Of a DNA stretch of 64,000 bases, positions 32,042 to 57,086 are shown piece by piece. Below the pieces are notes generated by a model, which saw only the letters and a program-made list of their open reading frames with translations, was not told the origin of the DNA and ran no database searches. Origin of the DNA: an uncultured bacterium. GTDB lineage: Bacteria > Krumholzibacteriota > Krumholzibacteriia > Krumholzibacteriales > CAZTHK01. Where the stretch lies: assembly GCA_964613215.1 (NCBI GenBank), contig CAZTHK010000005.1:7958-71957 (forward strand), read 5' to 3'. The position numbers were made by a program, and so were the translations under genes. Numbering within the stretch: the first letter of the stretch is position 1; every line of letters starts with the position of its first letter.

Positions 32042-32048
32042 AATGAGA

Positions 32049-32085
32049 CCCAGGGCGATCATCCTCACGTGAAGATCACCCCGGG
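32049..32085 (-). terminator. 12-bp stem-loop between convergent genes (terminator-like) carrying a conserved loop motif
   Basis: Minus strand CCCGGGGUGAUC/GAUCGCCCUGGG pairs fully with two G-U wobbles; 13-nt loop UUCACGUGAGGAU. Confidence 0.6.
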
Positions 32086-32111
32086 CCGTCCATATTACAG
32101 CGGTTGACAGA

Positions 32112-32510
32112 TTACAGCGTTCCCGGATTACCCAGCTGTTCTATTCTGTTTCCCACTATCCAGGTGTAATGAATTACATCCGTGGTGGAATGAATGGTTA
32201 TTTCTATTGTTTCCCCGGGCTTTGCGGGTTTATCACCGGTTCTTGCTATCAACTGTCCGTCGTCAGATACAGTACACCATCCCGATGGGGCATAGCTGTC
32301 TATTATTGCTCCCTTGGGATCCAGAAACTGTACCGCATAAATGGGGCTTTTGGTGGCTTCAATCTTCACCGTTACAAGAAAGTTTCCCTCTTCGGTATGT
32401 TTTACACTCTTGCTGATCACAGCCGTTGAACCCGAAAGGGATGTGGCCAGGAAGAGGGTGAGAAGAACAGAAACCAGGGTGAAATACGCCACCCTTCTTT
32501 TACCAAACAT
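32112..32510 (-). CDS. Small secreted hypothetical protein (Ig-like pattern)
   Basis: ATG at 32510 with GGAGG SD; signal peptide; APSGW motif and alternating beta strands. Confidence 0.75.
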   Translation of the reverse strand: MFGKRRVAYFTLVSVLLTLFLATSLSGSTAVISKSVKHTEEGNFLVTVKIEATKSPIYAVQFLDPKGAIIDSYAPSGWCTVSDDGQLIARTGDKPAKPGETIEITIHSTTDVIHYTWIVGNRIEQLGNPGTL

Positions 32511-32769
32511 CTTGTTGTCCTCCAAGCAGTTGTTGTAACTATCCAAACTAATTTATAAGATACTTAACAATAGCTCCTGATGTGTTTATTATTATACCAT
32601 AAACTCAGCCACTTTGTCGAGCGGGCTAAAACATTTTCCGGAAATATAGGGTATATTTTTCCTGATAGCCATTTCCGGATTATTCAATCGGTGAGCTAAA
32701 AGCCTGTAATTGATTAAGATAAAAATATATGACGGTGAGGCATAATGGTTGCAGTCAACTGAATCTGAA

Positions 32770-33336
32770 ATGTACAGGTATATATTGATATTGATTGTGA
32801 CTCTTCTGATACCGGTTTCCGGGCTCACCCAGATTTTCCACCCCGGCGTTGTGGAGACTCATCTGGGAGGGGGGTTATCGCTTTATGCCCCCATTCATCA
32901 CCAGTCGATGTCATTGGGGTATGCCCTGTCCCTGACCATGCGGCCGGAATATGCCAGAAACATTATCGACGGCCTGGAAAGATGGAATCTGGGTTTTACC
33001 GTACAGTCTATTAATCATGTGATGGAATCCGGGGAAGTCTTCCGGGATGCCGGATTTACTCTGAGATATTATCTCACTGAAAATAAATGCGGTTTGGACT
33101 GGGAGAGCTATTTCATAGGGGGAGGACTCGGTGTAGCCACATACCAATGGGAGGGAGGGGGAATAACACATAAGCACAAGAACCTGGATTATCTTCTCGA
33201 ACTTGGTTACGAAGCTGATATGAGAAGGCCGTTAGTCTTTGTCTTCAGCGCCAATGCCCGCCTGGCCAGCAGGGAATCGATAAGTTTTACCGGAATCGGG
33301 ATAAGTATCTCTATTGCCTATGGGGTGGGGGAATAG
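32770..33336 (+). CDS. Probable small outer-membrane beta-barrel protein
   Basis: Signal peptide from ATG 32770; amphipathic strands (FTLRYYL, YFIGGGLGVA, LELGYE, ISISIAY). Confidence 0.65.
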   Translation: MYRYILILIVTLLIPVSGLTQIFHPGVVETHLGGGLSLYAPIHHQSMSLGYALSLTMRPEYARNIIDGLERWNLGFTVQSINHVMESGEVFRDAGFTLRYYLTENKCGLDWESYFIGGGLGVATYQWEGGGITHKHKNLDYLLELGYEADMRRPLVFVFSANARLASRESISFTGIGISISIAYGVGE

Positions 33337-33489
33337 TAAAACCTTTCCAGCAGGAAATTTCTTATTATTTGCAATGTCAATTATTTTTACGATTAGTGAT
33401 GCGGTGGCATATAACTTTCTAGATGTATGAATCATAACGGATTTGTGAAATGGAACTAATGTATCTGGTTATTTGATAAAGGAATTAAA

Positions 33490-33873
33490 ATGCCACACCG
33501 AATTCTTGTAGTCGATGACGAAGTGCATCTTGCAAAGATTATCGAATTCACTTTAAAACATGAAGGATATTCGGTTGATGTAGCCTTCGATGGCGAAGAG
33601 GCACTGGAAAAGATCAGAAACAGCGATCCGGATCTTATAATTCTGGATCTGATGCTTCCCATAGTGGATGGATATAGAATCTGTAACCGGATTAAAGGGG
33701 ACGAAAGATACATGGATATACCGGTTATAATACTTACCGCCAGGAATATTGAGGGAGAGGATATAAAAGAGCCCATAAGGGCGGATATGTTTATGAAGAA
33801 ACCATTCAATACGGATAAGCTTCTGGAGAATATTGAAAGTCTTCTGGAACAGAAGTCTGCAGCCGGCGGTTAG
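33490..33873 (+). CDS. Single-domain response regulator
   Basis: ILVVDDE, DLMLP (phospho-Asp), LTA, KKPF. Confidence 0.93.
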   Translation: MPHRILVVDDEVHLAKIIEFTLKHEGYSVDVAFDGEEALEKIRNSDPDLIILDLMLPIVDGYRICNRIKGDERYMDIPVIILTARNIEGEDIKEPIRADMFMKKPFNTDKLLENIESLLEQKSAAGG

Positions 33874-33894
33874 TTGCCGCTCTCTTGCAGCCGG

Positions 33895-34524
33895 TCAGGA
33901 TGGCTGCATGAAAATATCCTGTTGTGCGGATTTCTCTTCCCCGCCGGTGTTTTCATTACTGCCGTCACCCAGGTATGTCTCCTTCTCCCTTATGAGCTTT
34001 TCCAGCTTTTTTCCCATTTCCATAAACTCCTTGCGGGATAGGAGGGTCAGACATTTTTTTAATTCATCAATCTCAGATGATTCCTTATCTTTAATTTTTT
34101 CAACCGCTTGCATCATGTTCTTATTAAAACAGGCGAAGGGTCCGTGGCCGGTTCCTGTCTCGCTGAGGCGGGGGAAACTTCCCCTGGCAAGTGATATCAG
34201 TCCCCGCTGCGCCACACCTACCGGCCGGAATAATTTTGCAGTAATAAGAATGGATAAGATATACAGCGATGCTGCTATGATCAGTATTACGGCAAAGGTG
34301 TTTACCAGAAGCATACTCTTCATCTTACCAGACACCGCCTCCAGCTCGGGTATCTGTTTGACCATGGCAGCCTCACTGGATATGAGTGAAAAATAGAAAC
34401 TCAGTCCGAAGGCTAAAGCCACTACCAGGGTAGATACCAGCAGTAGTACCCTTATTTGCATCTTTATCTTGCCGGCTATATTCTCGGTAAGTTCCTGAAT
34501 AGTGCTTTCAGATTCTTTGAACAT
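33895..34524 (-). CDS. Two-TM membrane protein with HAMP-like segment
   Basis: Two hydrophobic helices followed by KLFRPV...LARGSF...FNKNM. Confidence 0.6.
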   Translation of the reverse strand: MFKESESTIQELTENIAGKIKMQIRVLLLVSTLVVALAFGLSFYFSLISSEAAMVKQIPELEAVSGKMKSMLLVNTFAVILIIAASLYILSILITAKLFRPVGVAQRGLISLARGSFPRLSETGTGHGPFACFNKNMMQAVEKIKDKESSEIDELKKCLTLLSRKEFMEMGKKLEKLIREKETYLGDGSNENTGGEEKSAQQDIFMQPS

Positions 34525-34627
34525 CGATCTTCCCCCTTTTCAGTACCACAGGGCTGTATTTCCTTACCTGGAAAATATGTATTATACTCAAATGAGTATC
34601 TAATCAATAAATGTGCCAGAAACGGGG

Positions 34628-35422
34628 TTAATCCCCCCCGCAGAATTTCTCCAGTGCCGCTTTGAATTCATCCACATCCACGGTGGTGTCCTTACATGGT
34701 CCGGAGGGACGGATATTGGATATTCCGATAACGGGTATACGCGGAGCTATATCCCTTATACCGCTCAACAGGTCCCTTTCGCAGGCAATTGCCACTATGG
34801 CATTCGGTTCAGTCTTATTAACTATCCGGCGTGCGACCTCCCCGCCCGGTGCGGTGTGAGATTCCACATTGGGAAAGCGGGAGCAGATATCGGAGATGGC
34901 CTTCCTGGTGGTTTTATTCAGGCATCTGGGGAGAAGTGCCAGGACCTTGCCCTGAACGTTGTCAACCCCGACCAGGTCGTTGCTGACTTTAATAAAAGAG
35001 TGACTTAACCGGTCTCTGGAGATACCCAGCCTGGAGGCCAGCCTCTGAACACAGGGGAGGAGAAAGAAAAATAGTTTATTCCCCCTGGAGAGACATATAT
35101 TAAAATAGTTGTTCTTCAGGTAAACTGCCATGATCAGAAGCAGATACCAGGCCAGAAGGAAGAGGGCGGAACCTGTGGTCAGAATGAGCAGTATCAGCAC
35201 CCAGATCCTTCCGAACATTTCAAAACGGGGCAGGATAAGGTAGAGCAGCAAAAAAAGTATGGCGATGATTAAAGTTAGTACAGCCAGAGAGATCAGGAGA
35301 AAGGTGCGTTTTCCCTCATTTATGTTCCGGATACCCTCACCCTCTTCCCATTCCAGCCATTCATCTCCCAGAACCCGGTCCTTCCTTTTGTGCTTTTTAG
35401 TTTCAGGTCTATCTTGGGCCAT
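34628..35422 (-). CDS. DUF116 domain membrane protein
   Basis: LLPRCL, APGGEVAR, AIACERDLLSGI, RPSGPCKDT. Confidence 0.85.
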   Translation of the reverse strand: MAQDRPETKKHKRKDRVLGDEWLEWEEGEGIRNINEGKRTFLLISLAVLTLIIAILFLLLYLILPRFEMFGRIWVLILLILTTGSALFLLAWYLLLIMAVYLKNNYFNICLSRGNKLFFFLLPCVQRLASRLGISRDRLSHSFIKVSNDLVGVDNVQGKVLALLPRCLNKTTRKAISDICSRFPNVESHTAPGGEVARRIVNKTEPNAIVAIACERDLLSGIRDIAPRIPVIGISNIRPSGPCKDTTVDVDEFKAALEKFCGGD

Positions 35423-35534
35423 TTCAAAAATTAGGGAAAAAGTAACTGGTTAAATGATAAAATTTCAATTGGAAATTTACTCCAACAACAAATATCATGC
35501 AACCAGAATCTTAACTCTACTAACCCGCAGGGCA

Positions 35535-35640
35535 GAGTTCCACGGGCTTGCCCGCGGGTGAATGTGAACTCCGCCCGGATGGGCGGCGGGCGAAGCTGGT
35601 ATTTTGATTGAGTGCCATGGGCTTGCCCATGGTTATCTAC
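35535..35640. repeat. Pair of directly repeated GC-rich palindromes with a central hairpin (REP / IS200-IS605 end-like, MITE candidate)
   Basis: CCACGGGC-TT-GCCCGCGG (35540-35557), CCGCCC-GGAT-GGGCGG (35571-35586), CCATGGGC-TT-GCCCATGG (35615-35632). Confidence 0.65.
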
Positions 35641-35680
35641 ATGGTAAGAGCCGAATCTGGAGGGAGTCAACCCGAAAAGT

Positions 35681-36568
35681 ATGAAGGAACATATAACTAT
35701 CTGGACAGCAATAATTTCAGTTTCCTTCGCAGCAATATTCATAAGGCTGGCGCAGGCTCCTCCCGCCACCATAGCCGCTCTCCGGATGATCTTTTCCATT
35801 CTGATGCTGGTGCCCTGGGTGGCGGTATCGGGGACCATGCGCCGGGAATTGAGGGAAGTTACCTCATATGATGCAACTCTTATGATTATATCAGGTTTTT
35901 TCCTGGCACTCCATTTCTATATGTGGATCTATTCCCTCTATCTGACCGGAGTGGCGAGTAGTGTGGTACTGGTTACCATGAACCCGATCTTCGTTTCCCT
36001 CTATTCTGCTCTGCTGGGCGGGGAGCGGCTGGGGAGGGTATTCTGGGTTGGGCTGGCTCTGGCTGTAGCCGGCAGCCTTATCATAGGAGAGCGTGATTTT
36101 TCAGCGGGAGGTACCCGCTGGAAGGGTGATCTTCTGGCTCTGGGCGGGGCTGTCTCGGTAGCAGGATATTTTCTGATTGGAGCAAAATTAAGGAGGAAAT
36201 TCTCTCTGGTCAGCTATATATTTCCGGTATATCTAACTGCTACTGTTATCCTTACCGGAGTTTCTATTTTCACCGGTGACGGCGTGCTGGGATACCGGCC
36301 GGAAGTTTACATCTACTGTTTTCTGCTGGCCCTGATATGTCAGTTTATGGGGCACACTCTGTTCAACTGGGCACTGAAATTCGTAGGTCCTTCAGTGGTG
36401 GCCATCAGTACAATGGGTGAACCGGTGGGTAGTACCATACTGGCTGTCTTCATTCTGGGAGAAACACCTGTACCAGCCGAAATAATTGGAGGGGTATTGA
36501 TACTTGGAGGTATAGTAACTGTTCTTTATATCAGGCAACTATCCCCCTCCCGGCCTTTGCCGGGTTAG
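35681..36568 (+). CDS. DMT/EamA family transporter
   Basis: About ten TM helices; GDLLAL, GHTLFNWAL, GEPVGS. Confidence 0.92.
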   Translation: MKEHITIWTAIISVSFAAIFIRLAQAPPATIAALRMIFSILMLVPWVAVSGTMRRELREVTSYDATLMIISGFFLALHFYMWIYSLYLTGVASSVVLVTMNPIFVSLYSALLGGERLGRVFWVGLALAVAGSLIIGERDFSAGGTRWKGDLLALGGAVSVAGYFLIGAKLRRKFSLVSYIFPVYLTATVILTGVSIFTGDGVLGYRPEVYIYCFLLALICQFMGHTLFNWALKFVGPSVVAISTMGEPVGSTILAVFILGETPVPAEIIGGVLILGGIVTVLYIRQLSPSRPLPG

Positions 36569-36600
36569 CTGTCTGCCATGGGCATGCAGAGAAGCTTTTT

Positions 36601-37032
36601 TCACCAGATATTCCGGGAGTCATTGCAGCCGGCGCTCAGTTCGGGGTCATCCCCATCCGGCCGGAATGTCTTGATTGTGATAAGATGTATGGTAACTCCA
36701 ACTGCGATTATAAAAAGTATCAGCCGTAACCACCACCGGGATACCGCCAGCCATGAGGTTAGCCCGATGGTTGACCATAGAAGCAGAATGGTAACTACCT
36801 TCTGCTTAAGCGGTATTCCCTTGCCTTCCCGGTAGTTCCCGATATAAGAACCGCACCACCGGTTGGTGATCAGCCAGTTATGAAAGAACCGGGAACTTCT
36901 GGAATAGCATATCGCAGCCAGCAGGAGGAAGGGGGTAGTTGGCAGAAGCGGGAGAAACATTCCAGCCACACCGAGTATTACCATACCGGTTCCCGCTGAT
37001 ATAAGCAGAATTCTGGTTATTCTCTTCATCAA
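36601..37032 (-). CDS. YbaN family (DUF454) membrane protein
   Basis: LPLLPTTPFLLLAAICYSRSS motif. Confidence 0.92.
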   Translation of the reverse strand: MMKRITRILLISAGTGMVILGVAGMFLPLLPTTPFLLLAAICYSRSSRFFHNWLITNRWCGSYIGNYREGKGIPLKQKVVTILLLWSTIGLTSWLAVSRWWLRLILFIIAVGVTIHLITIKTFRPDGDDPELSAGCNDSRNIW

Positions 37033-38207
37033 TTCTCCTGGATTGACCCGGGAGCTTTGGATGACAGGGAATCTATCAGCTGATTGACCTTTCCGGCTAT
37101 CTCTCCTCCGCCCTTCCAGACCCGGATGAAATTGCGGAATGCTTCCAGGGCCTTCTCCTTTGATCCCGATTTCATGTAAATATGACCCAGGTAGTAATAT
37201 GTCCTGGGAGGTGTCTCCGATGCACCCAGCAGATTCTCCATTACTTTAAGCGCTGAATCGATTTTACCCGAGCGGTATAGAGCTAACCCCAGACCAAGAT
37301 TTGATTCGATATCCCGGGGAGAGATTTCCAGGGCTTTATGGAACGATTTCAGTGCCTTATCCCACTTCTTCTCTGTGTTGTAATATTTGCCCAGGTTTCG
37401 CCAGGCGGGAAGGGAGGAGCGGTCCCTGAAAATGGCCAGGCGGAAATTCTCCCTGGCCTCCCGGAGGTTTCCCAGTTCCATATGAGTCAAACCAAGATAG
37501 AGATAGAGGTCATGAGTCAGCAGCCCTCCGGACTTTGCCCGGTTCAGGGCATTGAGTGCGTCATTATACATTCGTCTCTGATAGGCGATCTTGCCCAGCA
37601 GCAGCAGTAACTTCTCATTGCCGGGAGAAAAGTTGAGGGCGGAGATGACCTGCGAATAAGCCATGGAGTATTTTCTCTGGCCGTAGAGGGCGGCAGCAAG
37701 AATTCGGTTTGCTTCAGCATGGTGGGGGAGCAGGTTGAGAGCGGTGGTAGCATAGTCCACAGATGTATTTAACTGGTCTGCTTTCAGTGCGCATCTTGCC
37801 AGGCCTATTGCTGCAGGGACATAGCGGGGAGAGAGATTCATACTGCGCCGGTAATATTTTTTCGCCTGTATTAAATTGTCCTGAAGCTCCAGCGCCCTGC
37901 CCAGTCCATAATTGGCCTCGTGGTCATCCCGGTTAATCGAAACCGCTATTCTCAAAGGGGGTTCCGCTTTCTCCGGCTGGCCGGTCTTCAGATATGCCAT
38001 CCCCAGGTTATAGTTAGTGGCCGGATCATCCGGGCGGTGCTCAAGTGACAGCTGCCATTCCCGGATAGCCTGTTCATAATTATCGATGGAGGCAGCATTC
38101 ACGCCCCGGTTGTAATGTTTTATGGCCGGGTCCCCACATGATGACAGCAGCAAGCATATAGTTACGGATAATATCAGGGTTATTATACGCATGTTATCAT
38201 AATCCAC
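37029..38207 (-). CDS. TPR-repeat lipoprotein
   Basis: Lipobox LSSC; repeated YNLG/YGLG/YLGL/NLG TPR helices. Confidence 0.88.
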   Translation of the reverse strand: MDYDNMRIITLILSVTICLLLSSCGDPAIKHYNRGVNAASIDNYEQAIREWQLSLEHRPDDPATNYNLGMAYLKTGQPEKAEPPLRIAVSINRDDHEANYGLGRALELQDNLIQAKKYYRRSMNLSPRYVPAAIGLARCALKADQLNTSVDYATTALNLLPHHAEANRILAAALYGQRKYSMAYSQVISALNFSPGNEKLLLLLGKIAYQRRMYNDALNALNRAKSGGLLTHDLYLYLGLTHMELGNLREARENFRLAIFRDRSSLPAWRNLGKYYNTEKKWDKALKSFHKALEISPRDIESNLGLGLALYRSGKIDSALKVMENLLGASETPPRTYYYLGHIYMKSGSKEKALEAFRNFIRVWKGGGEIAGKVNQLIDSLSSKAPGSIQEN

Positions 38208-38511
38208 ATAATCACCAATTTTGATAATATAAAAATAACAGTTAAGTTTCTCTTGACCAATATATTTTTATCATTCATATGGGGCTGCCCGGTGATGTGC
38301 TACAGAATTCCCATAACAATGAACTGATCTTAAGTTATCCGGAATTATGGATCGGAAGCAGTATGAAAAAATGCCCGGCTGATTATCTTCAAAGTTGGTT
38401 GCCCGGCAGGTGGTATGGGGTTATATTAAACCTGACCGGATAGATGGTTCCCTGTACGGAGATGGCAGGGGAGAAAGGTTTATGATTGACCATAATGAAA
38501 AGTAAGGAGCA

Positions 38512-38937
38512 GTGAATTTGCACGAAGTATCCCTGATGAAGAATCTACTTGAAATTGTGGAGAGGGCGGCAGGTGAAGGTGGGGTGGAAAGGGTAAGTGT
38601 TATCCATATGAAGATCGGGGAGATGTCGGGGGTGAGTACGGAAGCGCTGGAGTTTGCCTTCGAGGTACTCTCCGGGGGAACTGTTGCCCATGGGGGAAGG
38701 CTGGAATTCGAGAAGGTTCCCTTCAGGATAGAATGCAGAAGATGCGGCAGAAGTGCTCAGTTGGAAGAGTTTATCTTTCGCTGTCAGTACTGTGGTTCCA
38801 CCGAAATTGATATAGTATCAGGAAGAGAGATGGAGATAGATTATATACTTGCCGGGGATGAGGATGAATGGGAAGGGGAAGGTGATGATAATGAAATAAA
38901 CAGTCAGAAGGATGGAGGAAAGCAATGCATCAGATAG
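38512..38937 (+). CDS. hypA: Hydrogenase maturation nickel chaperone HypA
   Basis: HE N-terminus, two CxxC pairs (CRRC, CQYC), SGREM; acidic tail. Confidence 0.95.
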   Translation: MNLHEVSLMKNLLEIVERAAGEGGVERVSVIHMKIGEMSGVSTEALEFAFEVLSGGTVAHGGRLEFEKVPFRIECRRCGRSAQLEEFIFRCQYCGSTEIDIVSGREMEIDYILAGDEDEWEGEGDDNEINSQKDGGKQCIR

Positions 38938-39587
38938 GAGTGGGAGAGGATCTCAGGGAGAAGAACAGGGAGATAGCTGGTGAAAACAGGGAGATGCTGA
39001 AGAAGAACGGAGTAGTCTCGGTCAATCTCATGAGCGCCCCTGGAGCGGGCAAGACTTCCCTCCTGGTAAGAACGCTTCCTCTGCTGTCCGGAAGGTACAG
39101 TGTCGGAGTAATAGAGGGAGATGTTCAAACCAGGCGGGATGCTGAACGGGTGGAGAAACTGGGTATAGATGTATATCAGATACAAACCGGGGGGGTATGT
39201 CACCTGGATGCCTCCATGGTTCACTCTGCTCTGCATAACATGGATCTGGGCGGTTTGGATCTGCTGTTTATAGAAAACGTTGGCAATCTGGTCTGCCCGG
39301 CGGAATTCGAGCTGGGGGTGGATGCCAGGGTGATGCTTCTCAGCATAACCGAAGGGGATGATAAGCCCAAGAAATACCCCCTTATGTTTTCTGAATCCAG
39401 CCTGCTGATTTTTAACAAGATAGACCTGTTGCCCAATGTGGATTTCGAAATCGAAAGAGCCGCTATGGATGCCAGGGAAGTAAATCCGGATATAGATACA
39501 CTGGAACTCTCCTGCAGAACCGGAGAGGGAGTAGATAACTGGCTGAACTGGATCGACCGGCTGGTGGAAAAGTGTGGTGATGACTGA
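38925..39587 (+). CDS. hypB: Hydrogenase nickel incorporation GTPase HypB
   Basis: SAPGAGKT, CHLDA, ENVGNLVCPA, EGDDKPKKYP, NKID. Confidence 0.97.
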   Translation: MHQIGVGEDLREKNREIAGENREMLKKNGVVSVNLMSAPGAGKTSLLVRTLPLLSGRYSVGVIEGDVQTRRDAERVEKLGIDVYQIQTGGVCHLDASMVHSALHNMDLGGLDLLFIENVGNLVCPAEFELGVDARVMLLSITEGDDKPKKYPLMFSESSLLIFNKIDLLPNVDFEIERAAMDAREVNPDIDTLELSCRTGEGVDNWLNWIDRLVEKCGDD

Positions 39588-39823
39588 TGTGTCTGGGAAT
39601 ACCCATGGCGGTTATACACAGGGAAGGCAACCAGGCAGTGGTGGAGTCGGGGGGTATCAGAAAGAATATAAGGGTGGATCTGCTGGATGAGGTAGAGGAG
39701 GGCGATTATGTCCTGGTTCACACCGGTTTCGCCATTGAGAAAGTGGACACCGAAGAGGCAAGAGAAACTCTGGATTTGATAAAGGAAGTATACAGAGCAG
39801 GACAGCAGACCAGAGAGGGCTGA
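39587..39823 (+). CDS. hypC: Hydrogenase assembly chaperone HypC
   Basis: MCLGIP, GDYVLVHTGFAI. Confidence 0.97.
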   Translation: MCLGIPMAVIHREGNQAVVESGGIRKNIRVDLLDEVEEGDYVLVHTGFAIEKVDTEEARETLDLIKEVYRAGQQTREG

Positions 39824-39843
39824 GGCTCTTTCCCGGCTGCAGT

Positions 39844-40983: not shown

Positions 40984-41015
40984 ACTGGTCATGCTGTGGA
41001 TAAATTAGAATATTG

Positions 41016-47713: not shown

Positions 47714-47777
47714 TTTGGCGGGATCTTTTATCTGCCCGGCCATGAGATGGATTCCAGCGGGAATCAGGAGGCTACGG

Positions 47778-48317: not shown

Positions 48318-48350
48318 TTATCTGATACTATAAGAACTTGATCTTGACCC

Positions 48351-49259: not shown

Positions 49260-50044
49260 ATAACGCAATAGAAGTAGAAAATCTGAGTTTCCGGATAGAT
49301 CAGAAGTTTATCCTCGACTCCGTATCCATGAATGTGGAAGAGGGCCAGTATGTATCCCTGATTGGACCCAACGGGGCCGGTAAGACCACACTGCTTGGAT
49401 GTGTTATGGGGATAATTAAACCCTCAGGTGGTATTATCAGGGTGGAGGGAGATGATATACGCGATATCTCCCAGAGAGATCTGGCCTCCAGGATAAGTTA
49501 TGTACCACAGAATGAGGGAAGGTTTATCCCTTTCCGGGTGAGGGATTTTGTGATGATGGGAAGATATCCCCATCTCAGTCCATTCACGTCGGTGAGTGAA
49601 CGGGACAGGGCGATAGTACAGGAGGCACTTGAAATGACCGGTACGGCAAAGCTGGGGGATAGATACATAAATACCCTCAGCGGAGGAGAGACTCAGCTGG
49701 TATTCATTGCAGCTGCTATTTCCCAGGGGTCCCGCATACTTTTGCTGGATGAAGTGACAACCTTTCTGGACCCCGGTCATAAGAGCACTGTGCTGAATAT
49801 CCTGCGCCGGATCAACCGGAAGTTGGGCATCGCCATTGTTTCGGTAACCCATGATATAAACCATGCCCTGCTTTACAGTGAAATGGCAGTAGTGTTGAGG
49901 GGGGGAGGAGTAATGTTCCGGGGGAAGTCGGAGCTGCTGGCGGACAACAGAATACTTAAAAAGGCCTATGACCATGAGTTTGAATTCATGAAACACCCCT
50001 CCATGGATAAGGTTATAGTTGCTCCGGATGCAGGTGAAAGATGA
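49256..50044 (+). CDS. Cobalamin/Fe-complex ABC transporter ATP-binding protein
   Basis: GPNGAGKT, LSGGE, LLLDE, THDIN. Confidence 0.92.
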   Translation: MNNAIEVENLSFRIDQKFILDSVSMNVEEGQYVSLIGPNGAGKTTLLGCVMGIIKPSGGIIRVEGDDIRDISQRDLASRISYVPQNEGRFIPFRVRDFVMMGRYPHLSPFTSVSERDRAIVQEALEMTGTAKLGDRYINTLSGGETQLVFIAAAISQGSRILLLDEVTTFLDPGHKSTVLNILRRINRKLGIAIVSVTHDINHALLYSEMAVVLRGGGVMFRGKSELLADNRILKKAYDHEFEFMKHPSMDKVIVAPDAGER

Positions 50045-51054
50045 ATACTTCAGAGAAGAGGGTATTTCTGTACATCATTCTATTTTTTGTAGCGGTGATG
50101 ATTGTTTCACCTTATCTCGGCATCCAGAAAATATCTCCATGGGATGTAACAGGGGGGGGAGAAGATGATATAAAAAGTGAAATATTCTGGAGATTACGGG
50201 TGCCCAGGGTGCTGGCGGCATTTGCCGCCGGAGCTGCCCTGGCGCTAAGCGGAATGGTGTTTCAGGCTATGTTCAGAAATCCGCTGGCCACCCCTTTCAC
50301 TCTGGGAGTTTCCGCCGGGGCTGCTTTCGGGGCTGCCCTTTATATGAAACTGGGGATGGCTTTCTCCGTATTGTCTGTTCAAGGTGAATCTATCAGTGCA
50401 TTCCTGGGGGCAATTCTCTCTGTGCTTCTGGTTTATGGACTGACCCGCCTGAGAAGAGGTTTTTCCACCGCGGTTCTGCTTATAGCTGGAGTAGCTGTCA
50501 ATTTTTTCTTCTCCAGCCTGATTCTATTCATTCAGTATCTCAGCGATTTCGCCGGTTCCTACCGGGTGATAAGATGGTTGATGGGAGGATTCGAGATAGT
50601 GGGTTACCGGTCGGTGTTTACCCTGCTGTTATTTCTGGGTATGGGTATGGTGGTGATACTTTTCCTGATCAGGGAACTCAACCTGCTAATGGTGGGAGAG
50701 GATATAGCAGCCAGCCGGGGAGTGGAGGTAAAATGGGTTAAACTGTCTCTGTTTATAGCCGCTTCTGTTATGATTGGGGGAGTAGTGGCGGTATGCGGAC
50801 CTATTGGGTTTGTTGGTATGATGGTTCCACATATCTGCCGGTTGCTGATAGGCTCGGATCATAAGTATCTGGCTCCTGTTTCGATTCTGGCCGGGGGTTC
50901 TTTCCTGGTACTTTGTGATGCATTCTCACGCCTGATAATAGCACCCGCAGAGATCCCGGTTGGTATAATAACTGCGCTTCTGGGGGGACCATTCTTCATC
51001 TGGCTGCTGATAGGAAGATCCGGGAAGAGATGGATTTTCGACAGACAGTGGTAG
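50041..51054 (+). CDS. FecCD/BtuC family ABC permease
   Basis: RVPRV, FRNPLATPFTLGVSAGA, GPIGFVG..VPH, EIPVGIITALLGGPFF. Confidence 0.94.
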   Translation: MNTSEKRVFLYIILFFVAVMIVSPYLGIQKISPWDVTGGGEDDIKSEIFWRLRVPRVLAAFAAGAALALSGMVFQAMFRNPLATPFTLGVSAGAAFGAALYMKLGMAFSVLSVQGESISAFLGAILSVLLVYGLTRLRRGFSTAVLLIAGVAVNFFFSSLILFIQYLSDFAGSYRVIRWLMGGFEIVGYRSVFTLLLFLGMGMVVILFLIRELNLLMVGEDIAASRGVEVKWVKLSLFIAASVMIGGVVAVCGPIGFVGMMVPHICRLLIGSDHKYLAPVSILAGGSFLVLCDAFSRLIIAPAEIPVGIITALLGGPFFIWLLIGRSGKRWIFDRQW

Positions 51055-51166
51055 AATTAAATTGATCAAATTGCCGGCCGGCTGATAGTGGAATATTCTT
51101 CCTGACTCTTTAATAATTACAAAAAGTGGATATATTCCAGGAGAATAAAGAAGGTAATGATTACAG

Positions 51167-51254
51167 TGGTGCCGGAGGCGGGAGTCGAACCCGCATGGAG
51201 CAAAGCTCCGGGGGATTTTGAGTCCCCTGCGTCTACCAGTTTCACCACTCCGGC
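51167..51254 (-). tRNA. tRNA-Leu (CAA)
   Basis: GCCGGAG/CTCCGGC acceptor stem, GGGGA-CT-CAA-AA-TCCCC anticodon arm, long variable arm, encoded CCA. Confidence 0.97.
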
Positions 51255-51262
51255 ACGGAGTT

Positions 51263-51292
51263 AAAGTATTTGTTATTTATCGACAGTGTCAA
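51263..51292 (-). promoter_or_regulatory. Sigma70-type promoter of tRNA-Leu
   Basis: Minus strand TTGACA-18 nt-TACTTT just upstream of the tRNA. Confidence 0.5.
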
Positions 51293-51966
51293 GGTATATC
51301 TCGGTGGGAGGGGGTGGAAGCCGTATTATAAGTCTTCTTGGCTCTGCAGGGACCCAGAATGGCGGAGAGAAGAATGGCATTCTGCAGGTTGGATCTGTTT
51401 TTCAGAAAGCTCTCCATATACCTGCGCTTTTCAGCAGAAGCCATCTCCCTGCGTTGGGATAGAGATATAATCTCATCCCTCTGCCCGGTTATCTCCATGC
51501 GGGAAATAGGGCTGCCGGAAACCATCTCTTCAGCTTTTTCCAGCCGCTTGCGTTCATCCCCGCTGATACCTCTGGACTCCTCAAAACGGTCTTCGCTCCA
51601 TCCTGTTTCCTCCCGGCGAGGATCGATGTTGGAGCGGCCTGATGTTTCCCCGGCTATTCCTTCTGTACTCCCTTTACTCTCGAAGCGGTCTTCATCCCAT
51701 CCACCGGTTTCACCGGCATACTCACGGCTGCTCCGCTGAGGCGGGGCAGATTTTCCCCTTGAGGTGGAATATGGCTGGTAGGGGGGTTCTTCATCCTCAC
51801 CTGCGAAGTCCAGCTGCCCCAGGCGCTTTTCCATCTCTCCAAAGAAGTCTTCCCCATTCTTCTTTTTTTCTTCCTTTTTGTCCCCGGAAGAGAGGGAGCC
51901 GGCAACCCGCCTTATTATGTTGATCAGTATAAACCCTATTATCAGGACGATGATTCCGTCATTCAT
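51289..51966 (-). CDS. Membrane-anchored low-complexity protein (YqfB-like position in floA operon)
   Basis: N-terminal TM helix, charged linker, C-terminal LQNAILLSAILGPCRA. Confidence 0.7.
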   Translation of the reverse strand: MNDGIIVLIIGFILINIIRRVAGSLSSGDKKEEKKKNGEDFFGEMEKRLGQLDFAGEDEEPPYQPYSTSRGKSAPPQRSSREYAGETGGWDEDRFESKGSTEGIAGETSGRSNIDPRREETGWSEDRFEESRGISGDERKRLEKAEEMVSGSPISRMEITGQRDEIISLSQRREMASAEKRRYMESFLKNRSNLQNAILLSAILGPCRAKKTYNTASTPSHRDIP

Positions 51967-51969
51967 TTC

Positions 51970-52965
51970 TTATTCCTCTTCGCCCTTACCACTTTCCCCG
52001 GATGGTCTGGCTATGGAACTTCTCATGCTGGTGTCCGCCTGGATGTTCTTGAGGTTGTAATAGTCCATTATACCGAGGTTCCCGCTTCTGAATGCTTCGG
52101 CGATGGAACGGGGAATTTCCGCTTCCGCTTCCACCACCTTGGCACGGTGTTCCTGAGTAAGTGCTTTCATCTCCTGTTCCCTGGCTACAGCCAGAGCCCT
52201 GCGTTCCTCCGCCTTGGCCTGGGCAATTCTCTTGTCCGCCTCCGCCTGATCGGTCTGCAGTTTAGCTCCGATATTATCTCCCACATCCACATCGGCAATA
52301 TCTATGGAGAGGATTTCAAAGGCGGTTCCTGAATCCAGCCCCTTCTCCAGTATGTTTCTGGAGATATTATCCGGATTTTCCAGAACCTCTTTGTGAGTAG
52401 TGGTGGACCCTATAGTGGTAACTATTCCCTCACCAACCCGGGCAATTATGGTCTCTTCTCCGGCGCCCCCCACCAGCCTGTCAATATTGGCTCTCACCGT
52501 AACCCTGCTGGTGGCCTTAACCTGAATTCCGTCCATGGATACTGCAGCAATCATGGGGGTATTTATCACCTTGGGATTAACACTTACCTTGACCGCTTCC
52601 AGCACATCACGCCCGGCCAGGTCAATGGCTGTAGCTCTCTCGAAGGAGAGATCAATATTGGCTTTATCCGCAGAGATGAGCGAATTCACCACACTGGTAA
52701 CATCACCTCCCGCCAGGAAATGTGCTTCCATCTTGTCGGTGTTCATCTTTAATCCCGCTTTAGTGGCAGCGATGATGGGACGAATTATCTTCTGGGGAGG
52801 CACCTTCCTGAGCCGCATACCCACCAGATCCCTGAATATTTTCAATTTTACTCCGGAGAAATATGCAGTTATGTAAAGCCCCAGAGGGATAAAGTAGAAG
52901 AACAGAATTAACAGTATTATTATCCCGATTACCATCAAGAAGAGACCTATTCCTGATATACTCAT
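51970..52965 (-). CDS. floA: Flotillin-like protein FloA (UPF0365)
   Basis: [58 protein letters not shown]. Confidence 0.96.
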
Positions 52966-52998
52966 TTTTCTCCATCCTTTGATTCAGGGTTAAAGTTT

Positions 52999-54333
52999 CT
53001 AAGCCAGATCCACAACGATTCTGTATCCCTCCACTCGAATAACCTTTATCCTTGAGTTCTTCTGAATATAACCGCCCTCCGTTACCACTGAATACTTGGA
53101 GCCGTCTATCAGGGCGGTGCCCGAAGGACGAAGCATGGTAACTGAGACCCCTTCCTTACCCAGCAGTGATTCATAGGTATCCGGAGATGAGCGGTAACCC
53201 TCTGCACCGCTCTCCGAAGTATTGAGTATCAGATGCTGGAAAGGAGTAAAACGGGGAAGTTTTCTGATCAACACCATAATTACGGCAAAGGAAACGATAA
53301 ATGATATGGCCAGGATTTTAATAGCGGATACAAAATCACTGACCACAGTAAACCGGCCGATAAGACTCAGAAAGAGGCTGGCCACTATACAGATTATTCC
53401 CATAATTCCCACCACTCCGAATCCCGGGATAACAAAGAATTCCACCAGCAGCAGTCCGAGCCCTACGATAAACAGGAGTATTTCCCACCACCCGGCTATA
53501 TTCACAATATACTGGCTTCCGAAGAAGAGTATCAATGCAATAAGGGCTATTGCCCCCGGCAGACCCAGCCCGGGAGTCTTGAATTCCAGGAATATTCCCA
53601 GAATGGCTATGGTAATCAGTATGCTGCTGACCATAGAGGTGGTAAGGAACCCGGCCAGTTTCTCTGAAGCATTCATCTCGGCCACGCTGGTGACAGCAGA
53701 AGAAAGGCCCTGGTCGGTCAGGAGTTCCTGGAGGTCCTTCACAGTCTTATCGGCTATCCCGAGTTCCAGTGCTTTGGAGGTGGTAAGGGTAAGTAACTTG
53801 CCCTCATCGATTACTCCTTCTATCTCGATAGAGGGATCCGCAAAAGCTTCCGCCACATCGCCCCTCCGGTTGTTTTTCTCCGCGGTGGAACGGAGTTCCG
53901 TCCGCCAGTAGGAGATAACCTTTTCACTGACCTCGCCCTTGCTCATCCCCATACCCATGGAGACAGGTTTGGCTGCTCCTATGGTCGAGTTAGGGTGCAT
54001 ATAGATGCGGTCGGCGGCAAGAGATATAAGTGCCCCCGCCGATATGGCCCTCTTGTCGATGAATGCGGCGGTTGGTATATTCGAATTCAGTATTGCATCA
54101 CGAATGGCAACGGCAGCATCCAATCTTCCGCCAAAGGTGTTAATACGGTATATGATCAGATCATAACCCTCTTCGGCCGCCTGGCCGGTAGCCCTCTGGA
54201 TGAATGGAGCCAGCCCAAGCTGAATCTCGCCCTTCACCGGGATAACCAGCACTCCGGCACCGCTCAAACCCTGATCCCCTGCAGCGGTGACGGCGAAGAA
54301 TAATATTATCCATAAAATAATTAATCTTTTCAT
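52999..54333 (-). CDS. nfeD: Long-form NfeD membrane-bound serine protease (YqeZ-like)
   Basis: INTFGGRLDAA, AISAGALI (Ser), GKLLTLT (Lys), TM bundle, C-terminal LRPSG OB domain. Confidence 0.92.
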   Translation of the reverse strand: MKRLIILWIILFFAVTAAGDQGLSGAGVLVIPVKGEIQLGLAPFIQRATGQAAEEGYDLIIYRINTFGGRLDAAVAIRDAILNSNIPTAAFIDKRAISAGALISLAADRIYMHPNSTIGAAKPVSMGMGMSKGEVSEKVISYWRTELRSTAEKNNRRGDVAEAFADPSIEIEGVIDEGKLLTLTTSKALELGIADKTVKDLQELLTDQGLSSAVTSVAEMNASEKLAGFLTTSMVSSILITIAILGIFLEFKTPGLGLPGAIALIALILFFGSQYIVNIAGWWEILLFIVGLGLLLVEFFVIPGFGVVGIMGIICIVASLFLSLIGRFTVVSDFVSAIKILAISFIVSFAVIMVLIRKLPRFTPFQHLILNTSESGAEGYRSSPDTYESLLGKEGVSVTMLRPSGTALIDGSKYSVVTEGGYIQKNSRIKVIRVEGYRIVVDLA

Positions 54334-54452
54334 AATCTGACCCTGTAGGGAAATCTATTTCTTTTTGCCGATTTAGTCAATAGTATTCTATTCAACTGCA
54401 GTAATATGAATAATAATCATTTAATTATAAGGAGCAACATCCGAAAATTAAC

Positions 54453-54480
54453 TTGACGAGGGTTTAGATATTGATAATAT
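54453..54480 (+). promoter_or_regulatory. Sigma70-type promoter of tRNA-Ala
   Basis: TTGACG-16 nt-TAATAT about 20 nt before the tRNA. Confidence 0.55.
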
Positions 54481-54499
54481 CAGTAAGGAAAGAAAGGTT

Positions 54500-54575
54500 G
54501 GGGTTGTAGCTCAGCTGGGAGAGCGCTTGTCTGGCAGACAAGAGGTCACGGGTTCGATCCCCGTCAACTCCACCA
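54500..54575 (+). tRNA. tRNA-Ala (GGC)
   Basis: GGGGTTG/CAACTCC acceptor stem with G3-U70, CTTGT-CT-GGC-AG-ACAAG anticodon arm, encoded CCA. Confidence 0.97.
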
Positions 54576-54661
54576 TTTTTTTTATTGTCATTAAATTTAT
54601 ATGGAGTAGAATTAGCGGGTGACTGAGATGGATACAGAATTGATAAGGGGAGTGATCAACC

Positions 54662-56059
54662 GTGAATAAAGAAAGGTTTCCGTCAGTACTGTATATATTT
54701 GAGGATGCTCGCTTCCCCAACTTTTTTCCCCTCTCCCTCTACAAACCGGTATATGATCTCAGAATCGGGATGGAAAACCTGGGCAGCAGGTTAATATATG
54801 ATCTGGATCCGGACAGGGTGGTTTATCTTTGCCGTCCCTATCTGGCCAATACTCTCTCCGAAGACCGGGAACAGCAGAAGGTGGAAAAGCCCTTTCAGGT
54901 AAACCGGGCCGAAGATTCCGAAGCACTATTCCTGAATGGCCGTTTGCTGACCCTCCAGGATGAACTTGGTGAAATGCTTCAGAAACTGGAGAAGAACACC
55001 CTGTTTCATAAAAACGGCAGGACAGTGGCGGCATGGCTGGATAAGGACAAAGTTGCACCATTAGTGGAATATATCATGGAGCCTCTGTCGGATGAAAATA
55101 TTACCCGGATTCTACAGATGATCGGAGGGAAAATCGGCGGGCCTGATTCCGGAAAAGGAAAGGTTGAGAATGAAGATGATGGAAAGATAAATGGTATAGT
55201 GGAGTGGGGAGGGAAAAATGGAATTAACATCAGAGAAACAGGTATTACCCTGCTTTCGCATGTGTGGCAGTTGATTGGCAACAATGCCAGATGTATAAAG
55301 GATGACTACCAGAAGAATCCGCTGAGAGGAACCGCTCCCGAAAGTGAATTGTTCAAGGGTGTTAATATGATAAACGAGGAAGACATTGTTATTGGATCCG
55401 AGGTGGAGGTCAGGTCGGGGACCGTTCTGGACGCATCGGATGGCCCGGTGATAATAGACAGCAGTGTTATAATCGAACCCAATGCCATAATATTCGGTCC
55501 CTGTTTTATAGGTAAAAATTCAGTAATCAGGGGCGGGGCAAAAATTGGCCAGGGTACCACCATAGGTGATTATTGCAAGATAGGGGGTGAGGTGGAGGAG
55601 ACCATAATATCCTCCTACACCAATAAGCAGCACGAAGGTTTCCTGGGCCATTCATATATCGGATCGTGGATTAATATGGGGGCCGGTTGCTGTAACAGCG
55701 ATCTCAAGAATAACTATGATCATATAGAGGCCTGGAGTGCCGGTAAGATAAGAAAAACGGGCAGGAGGTTTCTGGGTGCGGTAATCGGGGATCACTCCAA
55801 GGTTGCTATAAATACAAGGATTAATACCGGGACGGTTATAGGATTCTGTTCCAATGTGATCCCGCTGGGTTTCACTCCCAAATTCATACCCAGTTTCACC
55901 TGGAATATGGAGCCTGAGTTCGATGAGTATCAGCTGGACAAGGCGATATCTACAGCAGAGATAATGATGGACAGAAGGGGAATAGAATTATCACCCGCCT
56001 TTGAAGACCTGTTCACTTACATCTATAAATCCTGCAGGCAGAGTGGTCATAAAATATAA
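54662..56059 (+). CDS. GlmU-like putative sugar nucleotidyltransferase/acyltransferase (hexapeptide repeats)
   Basis: PLSLYKPVYDLRIG, DASDGPVII, KIGGEV, NKQHEGFLGHSYIG, NSDLKNNY. Confidence 0.88.
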   Translation: MNKERFPSVLYIFEDARFPNFFPLSLYKPVYDLRIGMENLGSRLIYDLDPDRVVYLCRPYLANTLSEDREQQKVEKPFQVNRAEDSEALFLNGRLLTLQDELGEMLQKLEKNTLFHKNGRTVAAWLDKDKVAPLVEYIMEPLSDENITRILQMIGGKIGGPDSGKGKVENEDDGKINGIVEWGGKNGINIRETGITLLSHVWQLIGNNARCIKDDYQKNPLRGTAPESELFKGVNMINEEDIVIGSEVEVRSGTVLDASDGPVIIDSSVIIEPNAIIFGPCFIGKNSVIRGGAKIGQGTTIGDYCKIGGEVEETIISSYTNKQHEGFLGHSYIGSWINMGAGCCNSDLKNNYDHIEAWSAGKIRKTGRRFLGAVIGDHSKVAINTRINTGTVIGFCSNVIPLGFTPKFIPSFTWNMEPEFDEYQLDKAISTAEIMMDRRGIELSPAFEDLFTYIYKSCRQSGHKI

Positions 56060-56071
56060 AAAGAAAGATAA

Positions 56072-56872
56072 ATGTCTCGAACTATCCTGATAGGGGAAAA
56101 GATAAACAGCAGTAATAACAGGATAAAAAGCATCCTGTCCAAGCGGGAAAAGCAGCCTCTTATGGAGATAGTGAGAAAACAGGAGGCGGGTAAAGCCTCC
56201 TTTGTGGATGTGAATGCCTCCATGATGATGAAGGAGGAGTGGGAAGCTCTGGAATGGGCTGTGGAGCTGATACTGGAGAATTCCCGTCTGGGAGTTTCGG
56301 TGGACAGTTCGGACAGCGGGATTCTTTTCAGAGCGGCTGAAAAGTATGGGGAAAGAATTCTGATCAACTCACTCTCCAGTGACAGCAAGTTGATCAGCCA
56401 GGCACTTCGGGTTTTGGGAGAGTCCGGTGCCAGTGCCATTATAATGCTGAAATCACGGGAGAAGATGCCAGCCGGGGTGGAAGAGAGGCTGGAACTTGCT
56501 GATATGGCCAGGGGGTTAATAGATGGTTCTTCCGTATCTTCTGACAGGATCTTCCTTGATCCTGTATTTACACCGGCAGCTCTATCAGCAGGGGGGATGT
56601 GGGGCATACTGGATACTGTGTCCCGGCTGAAAGAGGATCATCCCCGGTACAGGGTGGTGGGTGGACTGTCTAATATTTCCTACGGGATGCCTTCCAGAAG
56701 ATTGATCAACAGAACATTCCTGGGCATGTTGTTATCAAGGGGAATGGATGCCATTATTGCTGATGTAACAGATGCTGGACTGCTGGAAGCCCTCATCACA
56801 GCTGAATTCCTGCTTGGCTATGATGAAGGCGGCAGGGGGTTTTTGCAATACTACAGGTCCAGGAGATCCTGA
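56072..56872 (+). CDS. Pterin-binding methyltetrahydrofolate:corrinoid methyltransferase-like protein (AcsE / MetH folate domain)
   Basis: IGEKINSS, VDVN, SVDS, LINS, FLDP, GLSNISYGMP.R..IN..FL. Confidence 0.85.
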   Translation: MSRTILIGEKINSSNNRIKSILSKREKQPLMEIVRKQEAGKASFVDVNASMMMKEEWEALEWAVELILENSRLGVSVDSSDSGILFRAAEKYGERILINSLSSDSKLISQALRVLGESGASAIIMLKSREKMPAGVEERLELADMARGLIDGSSVSSDRIFLDPVFTPAALSAGGMWGILDTVSRLKEDHPRYRVVGGLSNISYGMPSRRLINRTFLGMLLSRGMDAIIADVTDAGLLEALITAEFLLGYDEGGRGFLQYYRSRRS

Positions 56873-56945
56873 GCGGACAGCCACTCATCCTTGTAAGTGA
56901 CTACCATACAATTAGATAAAGAGCATTAATAATATGCCACACCGG

Positions 56946-56960
56946 TGGCATAATTATTGA
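56946..56960 (+). promoter_or_regulatory. Possible sigma54 -24/-12 element within an inverted repeat
   Basis: TGGCAT-AATTA-TTGA (GA instead of GC at -12); overlaps ATGCCAC-ACCG-GTGGCAT (56934-56951). Confidence 0.4.
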
Positions 56961-56985
56961 ATGTATATTTATTCGCACGCGGAAT

Positions 56986-57086
56986 GTTCCCTGTTGGTTC
57001 GTGGCTTGTCATTTGCGTGGTTCTCATCCTCACGTGAAGAAGCACACGCGGTGATACACGTTCCATACGGGGAACTTTTATTTTAT
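56986..57086 (+). ncRNA. Candidate structured non-coding RNA (90-nt irregular hairpin + U tract)
   Basis: Nested pairings GTTCCCTGT/ACGGGGAAC, TGG/CCA, CGTG/CACG, TGTCA/TGATA, TTGCGTG/CACGCGG, TTCT/AGAA; wobbles are G-U on the + strand; followed by TTTTATTTTAT. Confidence 0.6.

Follow-up and report, generated by a model that had tools for sequence, protein, structure and literature searches.

The window analysed here is a stretch of 64,000 nucleotides (C5:7958-71957) from the genome of an uncultured bacterium of Candidatus Krumholzibacteriota, a phylum that to our knowledge has no cultured member. The genome (G000) comprises 3.41 Mb in 50 contigs and is 93.8 % complete. Like all genomes compared here, it is a metagenome-assembled genome (MAG). 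The window carries the 17-mer TCATCCTCACGTGAAGA twice, at 32059-32075 (site 1) and at 57024-57040 (site 2), both times exactly and on the plus strand of the DNA. Both sites are non-coding and each sits atop a stem; exact matching and folding agree on this with the initial annotation of the window. Site 1 lies between two convergent genes, and site 2 lies upstream of a cluster of signalling genes. We propose that site 2 is the loop of a small RNA (sRNA) and that site 1 belongs to the 3' end of an mRNA with which this sRNA would pair.

The match between the two sites is real and far beyond chance. If up to two mismatches are allowed, TCATCCTCACGTGAAGA is found twice in the window, at sites 1 and 2, and 0 of 100 dinucleotide-preserving shuffles contains any match. 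Exact copies across the whole genome also number two, the same two sites. A check proposed in the initial annotation, a genome-wide scan with up to two mismatches, adds one near-copy on contig C9 (1 mismatch) and one on C2 (2 mismatches). We reject both as chance matches: they read as His-Pro-His codons in coding-looking sequence, and the copy on C9 is embedded in an open frame that exceeds 600 codons. The initial annotation had also put a small probability on a chance match. Its conclusion stands, while the estimate itself was made after the fact. What truly speaks against chance is the conservation of both elements in relatives, the absence of which that annotation had named among its refuting conditions.

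The hairpin at site 1 and its gene

From its sequence and conservation, site 1 is predicted to form the top and the 3' arm of a terminator hairpin, which would end the minus-strand transcript of a conserved gene for a secreted protein. This terminator-type hairpin spans 32047..32087 (minus), where the 3' end of the mRNA is predicted. The putative pairing site at 32059..32075 (minus), 5'-UCUUCACGUGAGGAUGA-3', lies in the loop and the 3' arm and is the exact complement of the 17-mer at site 2. The gene is an open reading frame (ORF) at 32112..32546 (minus) for a protein of 132-144 amino acids with an N-terminal hydrophobic, signal-like segment. Upstream of it, at 32591..32620 (minus), lies a sigma-70-like promoter (TCGACA-18-TATAAT, 11/12, with TG), and CTCGACA...TATAAT-like text can be seen by eye upstream of the gene in four relatives' loci. 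The 144-amino-acid protein has no match in Pfam or NCBIfam and falls into unnamed clusters only in the ESM Atlas; the alignment of its family (A3) has a beta-rich-looking conserved mature part. From the other side a convergent HD-domain gene (30590..32041, plus; Pfam HD_5/HD) ends 5 nt before the hairpin. It is HD-GYP-like, a putative cyclic di-GMP (c-di-GMP) phosphodiesterase, and has a weak match to a NosR-family model of NCBIfam, under the cut-off.

When the 141 nt around site 1 are compared by BLAST with 40 relatives of the same order, the hairpin alone (38-42 nt) is recovered, in 20 of the 40 genomes (20/32 in family f2, 0/8 in f3) and with 78-93 % identity. The proteins that flank it are just 35-52 % identical to those of the window's genome. 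One of these BLAST matches (G034) is without synteny and was excluded from the hairpin alignment (A2). The position is otherwise constant: the hairpin lies between the HD-domain gene and the 144-amino-acid gene, each of which is found in 18 of the 20 loci (the misses are contig ends or G034), and it starts 20-45 nt after the stop codon of the latter. A model of the hairpin (R2) scores 44-76 bits on the sense strand compared to 22-35 bits on the antisense strand. It has one strong sense-strand match in 28 of 32 f2 genomes and in the window's genome. Hence the hairpin is not a repeat family. We also discarded the idea that the two sites are repetitive extragenic palindromes or miniature inverted-repeat transposable elements, since R2 and the corresponding model for site 2 (R1) each mark one locus per genome. 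The eight f3 genomes give no strong R2 match, and one weak match at 25.8 bits. All six f3 genomes that were searched have the 144-amino-acid gene, with unrelated terminator hairpins.

The hairpin of the window's genome folds at -33.1 kcal/mol in the minus sense, which is the more stable sense in 20 of 20 homologues, by a mean of 8.2 kcal/mol. A G.U pair (alignment columns 9-47) is invariant and a U.G pair (columns 13-43) is present in 17/20; both would be mismatches in the plus sense. Thus only the minus sense forms the hairpin. Less variation is seen in the 3' arm (CGUGAGGAUGAUCGYCCUGGG) than in the 5' arm, where wobbles maintain the pairing. The stem is GC-rich in all 20 homologues, and a run of at least four T follows it in 17 (by eye).

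The candidate sRNA at site 2 and its neighbourhood

Site 2 appears to belong to a previously undescribed sRNA family that is predicted to be transcribed from a sigma-54 promoter. The promoter-like sequence lies at 56946..56960 (plus) and consists of a -24 element TGGCAT (56946-56951), a 5-nt spacer and a -12 element TTGA (56957-56960). All 33 aligned homologues have TGGCAY-N5-TTG without change; the -12 box reads TTGA in f1-f3 and has the canonical form TTGC in two f4 homologues. In this alignment the -12 box is followed by 13-14 variable bases. Conservation then begins abruptly at GCACGCGGA and ends at CGGGGAAC, which a T-run follows. The start expected from the spacing of sigma-54 promoters is 1-2 nt ahead of GCACGCGG. 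The genome encodes rpoN (C3:115944) and has 27 matches to Sigma54_activat. TGGCAY-N5-TTGC occurs in it 33 times and TGGCAY-N5-TTGA 19 times, compared to 8 and 6 in reversed controls, and both motifs are mostly rarer at N4 or N6 spacing.

The candidate sRNA is about 111 nt long (56975..57085, plus). We infer its 5' end to within about 2 nt, and its 3' end falls inside the U-run. An invariant, single-stranded 5' tail (GCACGCGGA) is followed by a rod-like stem (helices P1-P3 and P5) and a U-tract, and a terminator-like site is called at the 3' end (57060-57075 plus TTTTATTTTA). The 17-mer (57024..57040, plus) sits in the apical loop as a putative seed. Its core kept in relatives is 57024-57036, TCATCCTCACGTG.

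Both the stability and the variation of the sequence argue for this structure. The minimum free energy is -42.4 kcal/mol (z -4.36), and 0 of 200 shuffles are equally stable. The covariation score is 0.140 as compared to 0.088 in shuffles; it is reached by none of 500, and all slid controls are lower. In P1 (alignment columns 11-20 with 101-110) the pair 20-101 is UA in 21 rows and CG in 9. P3 (columns 33-40 with 82-89) shows two-sided changes at each of the pairs 35-87 to 40-82, in 1 to 5 rows. P5 (columns 47-51 with 68-72) closes the loop with UUUCU/AGAAA and contains a swap between UA and AU. In P2 (columns 26-29 with 90-93) three pairs are constant and one changes on one side only. A further helix, P4 (columns 41-45 with 77-81), was dropped because it has no support in that column register. 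Indels in the apical region are not multiples of three. In all 33 homologues the plus-sense fold is more stable than the minus-sense one. The strands that the initial annotation had read from G-U wobbles, minus for site 1 and plus for site 2, are therefore the more stable ones in every homologue. Neither locus belongs to a described RNA family: at the gathering threshold Rfam finds three tRNAs only in the whole window, and at E<=10 both loci return noise (FtrA, snoRNA and miRNA models far under their thresholds).

In the BLAST comparison with the 40 relatives, a block of about 120 nt of the site 2 intergenic region (approximately 56975-57094) is found in 32 genomes (f2 28/32, f3 4/8), with 72-84 % identity apart from one short match of 29 nt at 93 %. 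The covariance model of the sRNA (R1) finds a single copy in the window's genome. Among 150 sampled genomes of the class it matches 30/35 in f2, 5/7 in f3, 4/43 in f4 and 2/13 in f9, and 0/52 in the four other families of the sample. Judging from their sequence context, the six weak matches in f4 and f9 are genuine homologues. One or more neighbouring genes are syntenic in every case (an NTP-transferase gene upstream in five, the IHF/HU-like and PilZ genes downstream in three), and all six have a -24/-12 box, in two of them canonical (TGGCACATCCTTTGCA, TGGCATATCCATTGCG). A pattern scan with 18 specified bases over 596 Gb returns 52 loci. The whole RNA frame is present in 35, which places the sRNA family in Candidatus Krumholzibacteriota MAGs. 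The other 17 belong to unrelated taxa, as chance predicts for a pattern and a search space of this size.

The order of the genes next to the sRNA is conserved. An IHF/HU-like gene lies beside the block in 31 of the 32 relatives' loci and a pterin-binding gene in 25. In the window, the sRNA is followed on the plus strand by this IHF/HU-family gene (57340..57615; Pfam Bac_DNA_binding, with IHF beta and alpha as the best NCBIfam models, under their cut-offs) and by a PilZ-domain gene (57830..58180; domain match, synteny kept). Next come a sensor kinase with REC, GAF/PAS, HisKA and HATPase domains (58830..60953) and a response regulator of the NtrC family of sigma-54 enhancer-binding proteins (60967..62340; REC, AAA+, HTH_8). 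This order is the same in 4/4 genomes examined, where the kinase has 51-57 % and the regulator 69-72 % identity. From this adjacency, the regulator, about 4 kb downstream, is together with the kinase probably the activator of the sRNA promoter, and the kinase would be the candidate sensor of the circuit.

Several further observations concern the surroundings of the sRNA. A perfect inverted repeat, TATGCCAC-ACCG-GTGGCATA, at 56933-56952 overlaps the -24 box and is called as terminator-like on the minus strand. Similar TGCCA...TGGCA inverted repeats lie over the -24 box in genus g2, G038, G033 and G009 (by eye). The repeat may be the terminator of the upstream gene or a structure that modulates access to the promoter. 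Some 50-75 nt upstream of the -24 box, relatives have a conserved AT-rich inverted repeat like ATAACA-N3-5-TGTTAT (for example in G008, G038 and G023; by eye), which is weak in the window (about 56905-56925). It may be a binding site for IHF or for the activator; the IHF/HU-like gene sits just downstream of the sRNA. Directly after the U-tract (57086-57100), TATGATACCACA / TATTGTAACAYA is kept in many f2 homologues; it may serve the IHF/HU-like gene as a -10-like element or belong to the 3' tail of the sRNA. Beyond the cluster there are extra kinase and receiver genes (window 62639-63999, G000:C5:71900-75274) and two further sigma-54 activator genes (C5:71900 and C5:74774), hence the region is dense in sigma-54 signalling genes.

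The composition of the genome is unusual for words such as CACGTG. ACGT is depleted about six-fold (2,174 occurrences versus 13,319 expected for uniform composition). Several palindromes that contain CG are rare as well (TCGCGA 54, GACGTC 99 and CACGTG 92, versus about 830 expected for each), and GATC and CAGCTG are not depleted. Such avoidance suggests either restriction-modification pressure or a depletion that depends on CpG context. A good share of the 92 CACGTG sites belongs to a multi-copy repeat with at least 15 copies, ...CCCGCAGGGCAGAGTTCCACGTGCTTGCACGTGGGTGAATGTGAACTC..., which carries two CACGTG words in a small hairpin. The repeat lies outside the window on C1, C2, C3, C4, C8, C12, C18, C20, C21, C23 and C35 (for example at C1:78965 and C3:5772).

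Complementarity between the two RNAs

The sRNA is plus-sense and the mRNA is minus-sense, hence identical DNA words give complementary RNAs. The complementarity spans 17 nt in the window's genome and 11-14 nt in relatives. The two loci that it links lie 25 kb from each other here, a distance that grows to hundreds of kb in a relative with a complete genome. In f1 and f2 both elements carry the motif; in f3 neither does, and the sRNA there keeps its frame with different loops.

Both elements are present in 27 genomes. A script scored 21 pairs, and eight further hairpins were read by eye (seven among the 27, the eighth in G028). In 19 of the 27 genomes the consensus 12-nt core is found in both elements. 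Wobbles (G.U or U.G) are the sole difference in G011, G023 and G036, and a terminal position is the sole difference in G005 and G009. G025 has one wobble and one A.A mismatch. In the remaining two genomes the sRNA core itself is changed. In G019 a C->U change in the sRNA is matched by a G->A change in the hairpin, next to a terminal G.G. In G033 a U->C change in the sRNA is matched by A->G in the hairpin, while in its congeners G038 and G013 both elements show the consensus. Uninterrupted Watson-Crick runs measure 11-17 nt in the script-scored pairs, except for G025, where the longest run is 7.

Among the 29 sRNAs of f1 and f2, CATCCTCACGTG is kept in 27. The two exceptions, G019 and G033, are the sole core substitutions seen in the sRNA, and both are compensated in the hairpin. 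As a rough estimate, two exact matches would arise by chance about once in 10,000, given that hairpin core substitutions affect about 3 % of cells.

The predicted energies fit an interaction. The duplex of the window's genome is worth -29.5 kcal/mol, from which costs of +5.4 for unfolding the sRNA loop and +8.6 for unfolding the hairpin top have to be met. A net of -15.5 kcal/mol is left (a net of -8.6 kcal/mol for the 13-nt core). Leaving aside the antisense of the sRNA gene itself, site 1 is the best of 1,779 seeded sites for the sRNA loop in the genome. There is no convincing target of the ribosome-binding-site (RBS) type in this genome; the next matches lie inside long ORFs or without a nearby start. 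For the 5' tail GCACGCGGAA, neither the target mRNA (best -9.6 kcal/mol) nor the genome as a whole offers a convincing site. As for the variant loops of the distant homologues, those of f4 lack a second long copy, and matches to those of f9 are not enriched relative to the control.

Matches to the 13-mer with one mismatch number 2-13 per genome in relatives, as compared to 0-4 in the reversed control. Nine extra matches were inspected: four are copies of site 1 that BLAST had missed, four are unclear, and one, in G026, is of the RBS type. The latter (L077, G026:C47:85860-88272, at about locus position 1202, minus sense) reads CACGUGAGGAUGAAUACG-AUG and continues into the start of a signal-peptide-like ORF. 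It may be a second target in that genus.

The candidate sRNA has the properties expected of an sRNA that pairs in trans: a seed in an accessible loop, a conserved complementary site and compensatory changes. The capacity of the two RNAs to pair appears to be kept across a whole family of uncultured bacteria. Of the three explanations offered in the initial annotation, it is thus the first, an sRNA that would pair with the 3' end of the 32112-32510 mRNA, that agrees with the predicted promoter, the terminator, the covarying structure, the loop motif, the complementary hairpin and the two compensatory changes.

Proposed mode of action and relation to known systems

We consider it probable that site 2 encodes a trans-acting sRNA, driven by sigma-54 and an NtrC-type protein, that pairs with the 3' terminator hairpin of the mRNA for the 144-amino-acid secreted protein. 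The sRNA would be made from the sigma-54 promoter, probably under the control of the NtrC-type regulator and the sensor kinase of the same conserved cluster. Its loop (5'-UCAUCCUCACGUG...) would then pair with the loop and the descending arm of the hairpin (5'-...CACGUGAGGAUGA). The first contact would probably be made by CACGUG, which is self-complementary and present in both loops, before the upper stem is opened. A likely outcome is that the mRNA loses its protective 3' hairpin, or becomes a substrate of RNase III, or both, and hence decays, with the sRNA possibly being consumed or titrated alongside. Our best guess is thus mRNA decay or mutual titration; the decay mechanism is proposed by analogy with the 3'-end-pairing antisense RNAs of Bacillus subtilis. 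RNase III is present in the genome. Hfq has no match in it (at 93.8 % completeness), which fits a long, perfect, loop-presented pairing. True antitermination seems kinetically unlikely, since the target arm emerges last. What we observe are the elements with their strands, structures, conservation, complementarity and co-variation; that the sRNA is transcribed, which protein activates it, and in which direction and with what effect it regulates are all predictions.

Several points weigh against this proposal. The A.A mismatch in G025 is internal and uncompensated, and G019 has its terminal G.G. The compensatory events are just two, each from a single MAG, and a sequence-specific binder common to both sites could likewise make identical DNA words change together. 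The hairpin has a nearly invariant lower stem (CCCGGGG/CCCUGGG) although this part lies outside the pairing with the sRNA, hence the pairing does not account for all of the constraint. To pair, the sRNA has to open a stable hairpin, so the kinetics may require a helper. In the window's genome the tail of the hairpin is degenerate (UCUCAUUCUAAUC), and a generic terminator scan did not call site 1. The distant sRNA homologues in f4 and f9 lack a comparable long partner. Two genomes that carry the hairpin, G028 and G032, gave no match for the sRNA, and G018, G027, G031 and G034 gave none for the hairpin; all are incomplete MAGs. Finally, the sRNA and the target transcript, their ends and any effect are predicted from sequence.

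The same pairing could also work in the reverse direction. An abundant 3' terminator fragment of the 144-amino-acid mRNA would then be a sponge or decoy that titrates the sRNA, and the real targets would be RBSs, since the CCUC loop, rich in pyrimidines, resembles an anti-Shine-Dalgarno seed. Distant homologues have CU-rich loops too (CUCUCC, AUUCCUC) though they have no long partner, the perfect 13-nt match in G026 covers the RBS of a signal-peptide gene (by eye), and the near-consensus sigma-70 promoter of the target gene could make its 3' fragment abundant. However, no start-codon-proximal site in the window's genome comes near site 1 in pairing energy, and no conserved RBS target was identified across genomes. 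We find a sponge rather unlikely. Even less plausible, and in our view improbable, is that the similarity is purely historical, such that an old partial duplication of the apical part of the sRNA became a plain terminator and nothing interacts. Extra same-sense likeness around the motif (CCC.G.ACG... before UCAUCC in both; by eye) does hint at a common origin. Yet a plain terminator would drift by compensatory changes, whereas the 3' arm is fixed across genera in which the flanking proteins have diverged to 35-52 % identity. Moreover, f3 shows that the 144-amino-acid gene tolerates any terminator, and two matched substitutions are unexpected without selection.

Explanations that need no contact between the RNAs, among them the other two of the initial annotation, fare no better. 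If both sites were recognized by one sequence-specific DNA- or RNA-binding protein, the same word on the same DNA strand would also co-vary, and a lower hairpin stem conserved beyond what pairing needs would be less puzzling. But wobbles and fold energies put the two RNAs on opposite strands, so that an RNA-binding protein would see complementary rather than identical sequences, in one case looped and in the other mostly paired. Each single-base co-variation would also require three changes, in the protein and in two sites, instead of two. The two loci have no linked gene in common that would be a candidate for the binder, and DNA sites at +50 inside an RNA gene and between convergent genes have no obvious logic. 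A shared binder of this kind therefore has a slim chance, and a shared site for an RNA-binding protein was the third idea of the initial annotation. Its second idea, that the sites are divergent relatives of parS or of the Noc-binding site (NBS) for a ParB-family protein, we give almost no credence. The core TCACGTGA is indeed common to both sites and parS: it has eight copies in the genome, three of them parS and two of them sites 1 and 2. The 16-bp near-palindrome ATCCTCACGTGAAGAT at 32061 exists as well, but it is the top of a hairpin stem. Unlike in parS, the palindrome is not conserved: what relatives keep at site 2 is the asymmetric (T)CATCCTCACGTG, which is not palindromic because TTGYAGAA follows. 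The location is also wrong for parS. Each element has one copy per genome, which makes two sites only, and the sole ParB_N match (C19:27710) lies on another contig, 2.3 kb from three canonical parS sites (C19:25281-25432). The rarity of CACGTG, for its part, reflects the genome-wide depletion of ACGT.

We return to an sRNA that would act on a terminator hairpin. It would give the phylum its first testable regulatory RNA circuit, made up of a candidate sensor kinase and activator of the NtrC type, an sRNA with a sigma-54 promoter and a pairing site of defined position and 13-17 nt. It would also be a clear natural case of a trans sRNA that has the terminator hairpin of an mRNA, and not a 5' region, as its conserved partner, backed by co-variation between molecules. 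The models R1 and R2 could enter RNA family databases to annotate Krumholzibacteriota MAGs. In a full-text literature search on the phylum name there was no title on RNA regulators among the matches listed, and no further search for sRNAs in the phylum was made. A bolder extension, which we regard as a long shot, is that the sRNA opens the terminator hairpin, destroys the secreted-protein mRNA and also alters 3'-end formation or read-through antisense to the HD-GYP-type gene. A two-component signal would in this way be wired into c-di-GMP turnover, a reading to be noted alongside the PilZ gene in the sRNA cluster. If true, the dedicated target of a trans sRNA would be an anciently conserved intrinsic-terminator hairpin between two convergent genes. 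Such Hfq-independent logic is not known to be described for trans sRNAs, and it would be found in a phylum without a cultured member.

Qrr with LuxO and GlmY with GlrK/GlrR are sRNAs controlled by sigma-54 and NtrC-family proteins. CrcZ and GlmY act as protein sponges, while Qrr pairs at 5' regions via Hfq. The candidate sRNA has the attributes of this kind of sRNA: the promoter, rpoN in the genome, a linked enhancer-binding protein that would activate it, and a structured, terminated non-coding form. It seems to work like Qrr, CrcZ and GlmY yet to be no member of a described family, since Rfam has no match even at E<=10. It has no likeness to them in sequence or structure, it occurs in an uncultured phylum, and its genome has no Hfq match. 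Unlike in Qrr, it would have a terminator hairpin at the 3' end of an mRNA as its conserved partner. The closest parallel in gene organization is CrcZ with CbrA/CbrB. The relevant passages of PMC8871633 place crcZ of Pseudomonas downstream of cbrAB, with conserved synteny and a sigma-N-dependent, CbrB-activated promoter. The candidate sRNA likewise combines a sigma-54 promoter, a short terminated RNA and synteny with a kinase and an NtrC-type regulator (compare the same passages of PMC8871633).

For the pairing at an mRNA 3' end, the nearest precedents are the type I systems RatA/txpA, SR4/bsrG, SR5/bsrE and SR6/yonT of B. subtilis. As the pertinent part of PMC7430163 describes them, these RNAs make their first contacts via loops, including terminator loops, and the duplex is cleaved by RNase III and then degraded by 3'-5' exonucleases, independently of Hfq. 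However, those pairs are cis-encoded and convergent, overlap by more than 100 nt and involve small hydrophobic toxins. Here the partners are 25 kb apart, the complementarity is 11-17 nt and the target is a signal-peptide protein of 144 amino acids. We rejected a type I toxin-antitoxin pair with overlapping 3' ends because of this distance and because the target is a protein of 132-144 amino acids. In the descriptions of enterobacterial sRNAs and sponges derived from 3' untranslated regions that we draw on (MalH, GlnZ), terminator-proximal mRNA 3' ends take part in base-pairing networks, as we propose for site 1. Their seed is single-stranded and lies upstream of the terminator, whereas at site 1 the complement lies inside the terminator itself, in its stem and loop.

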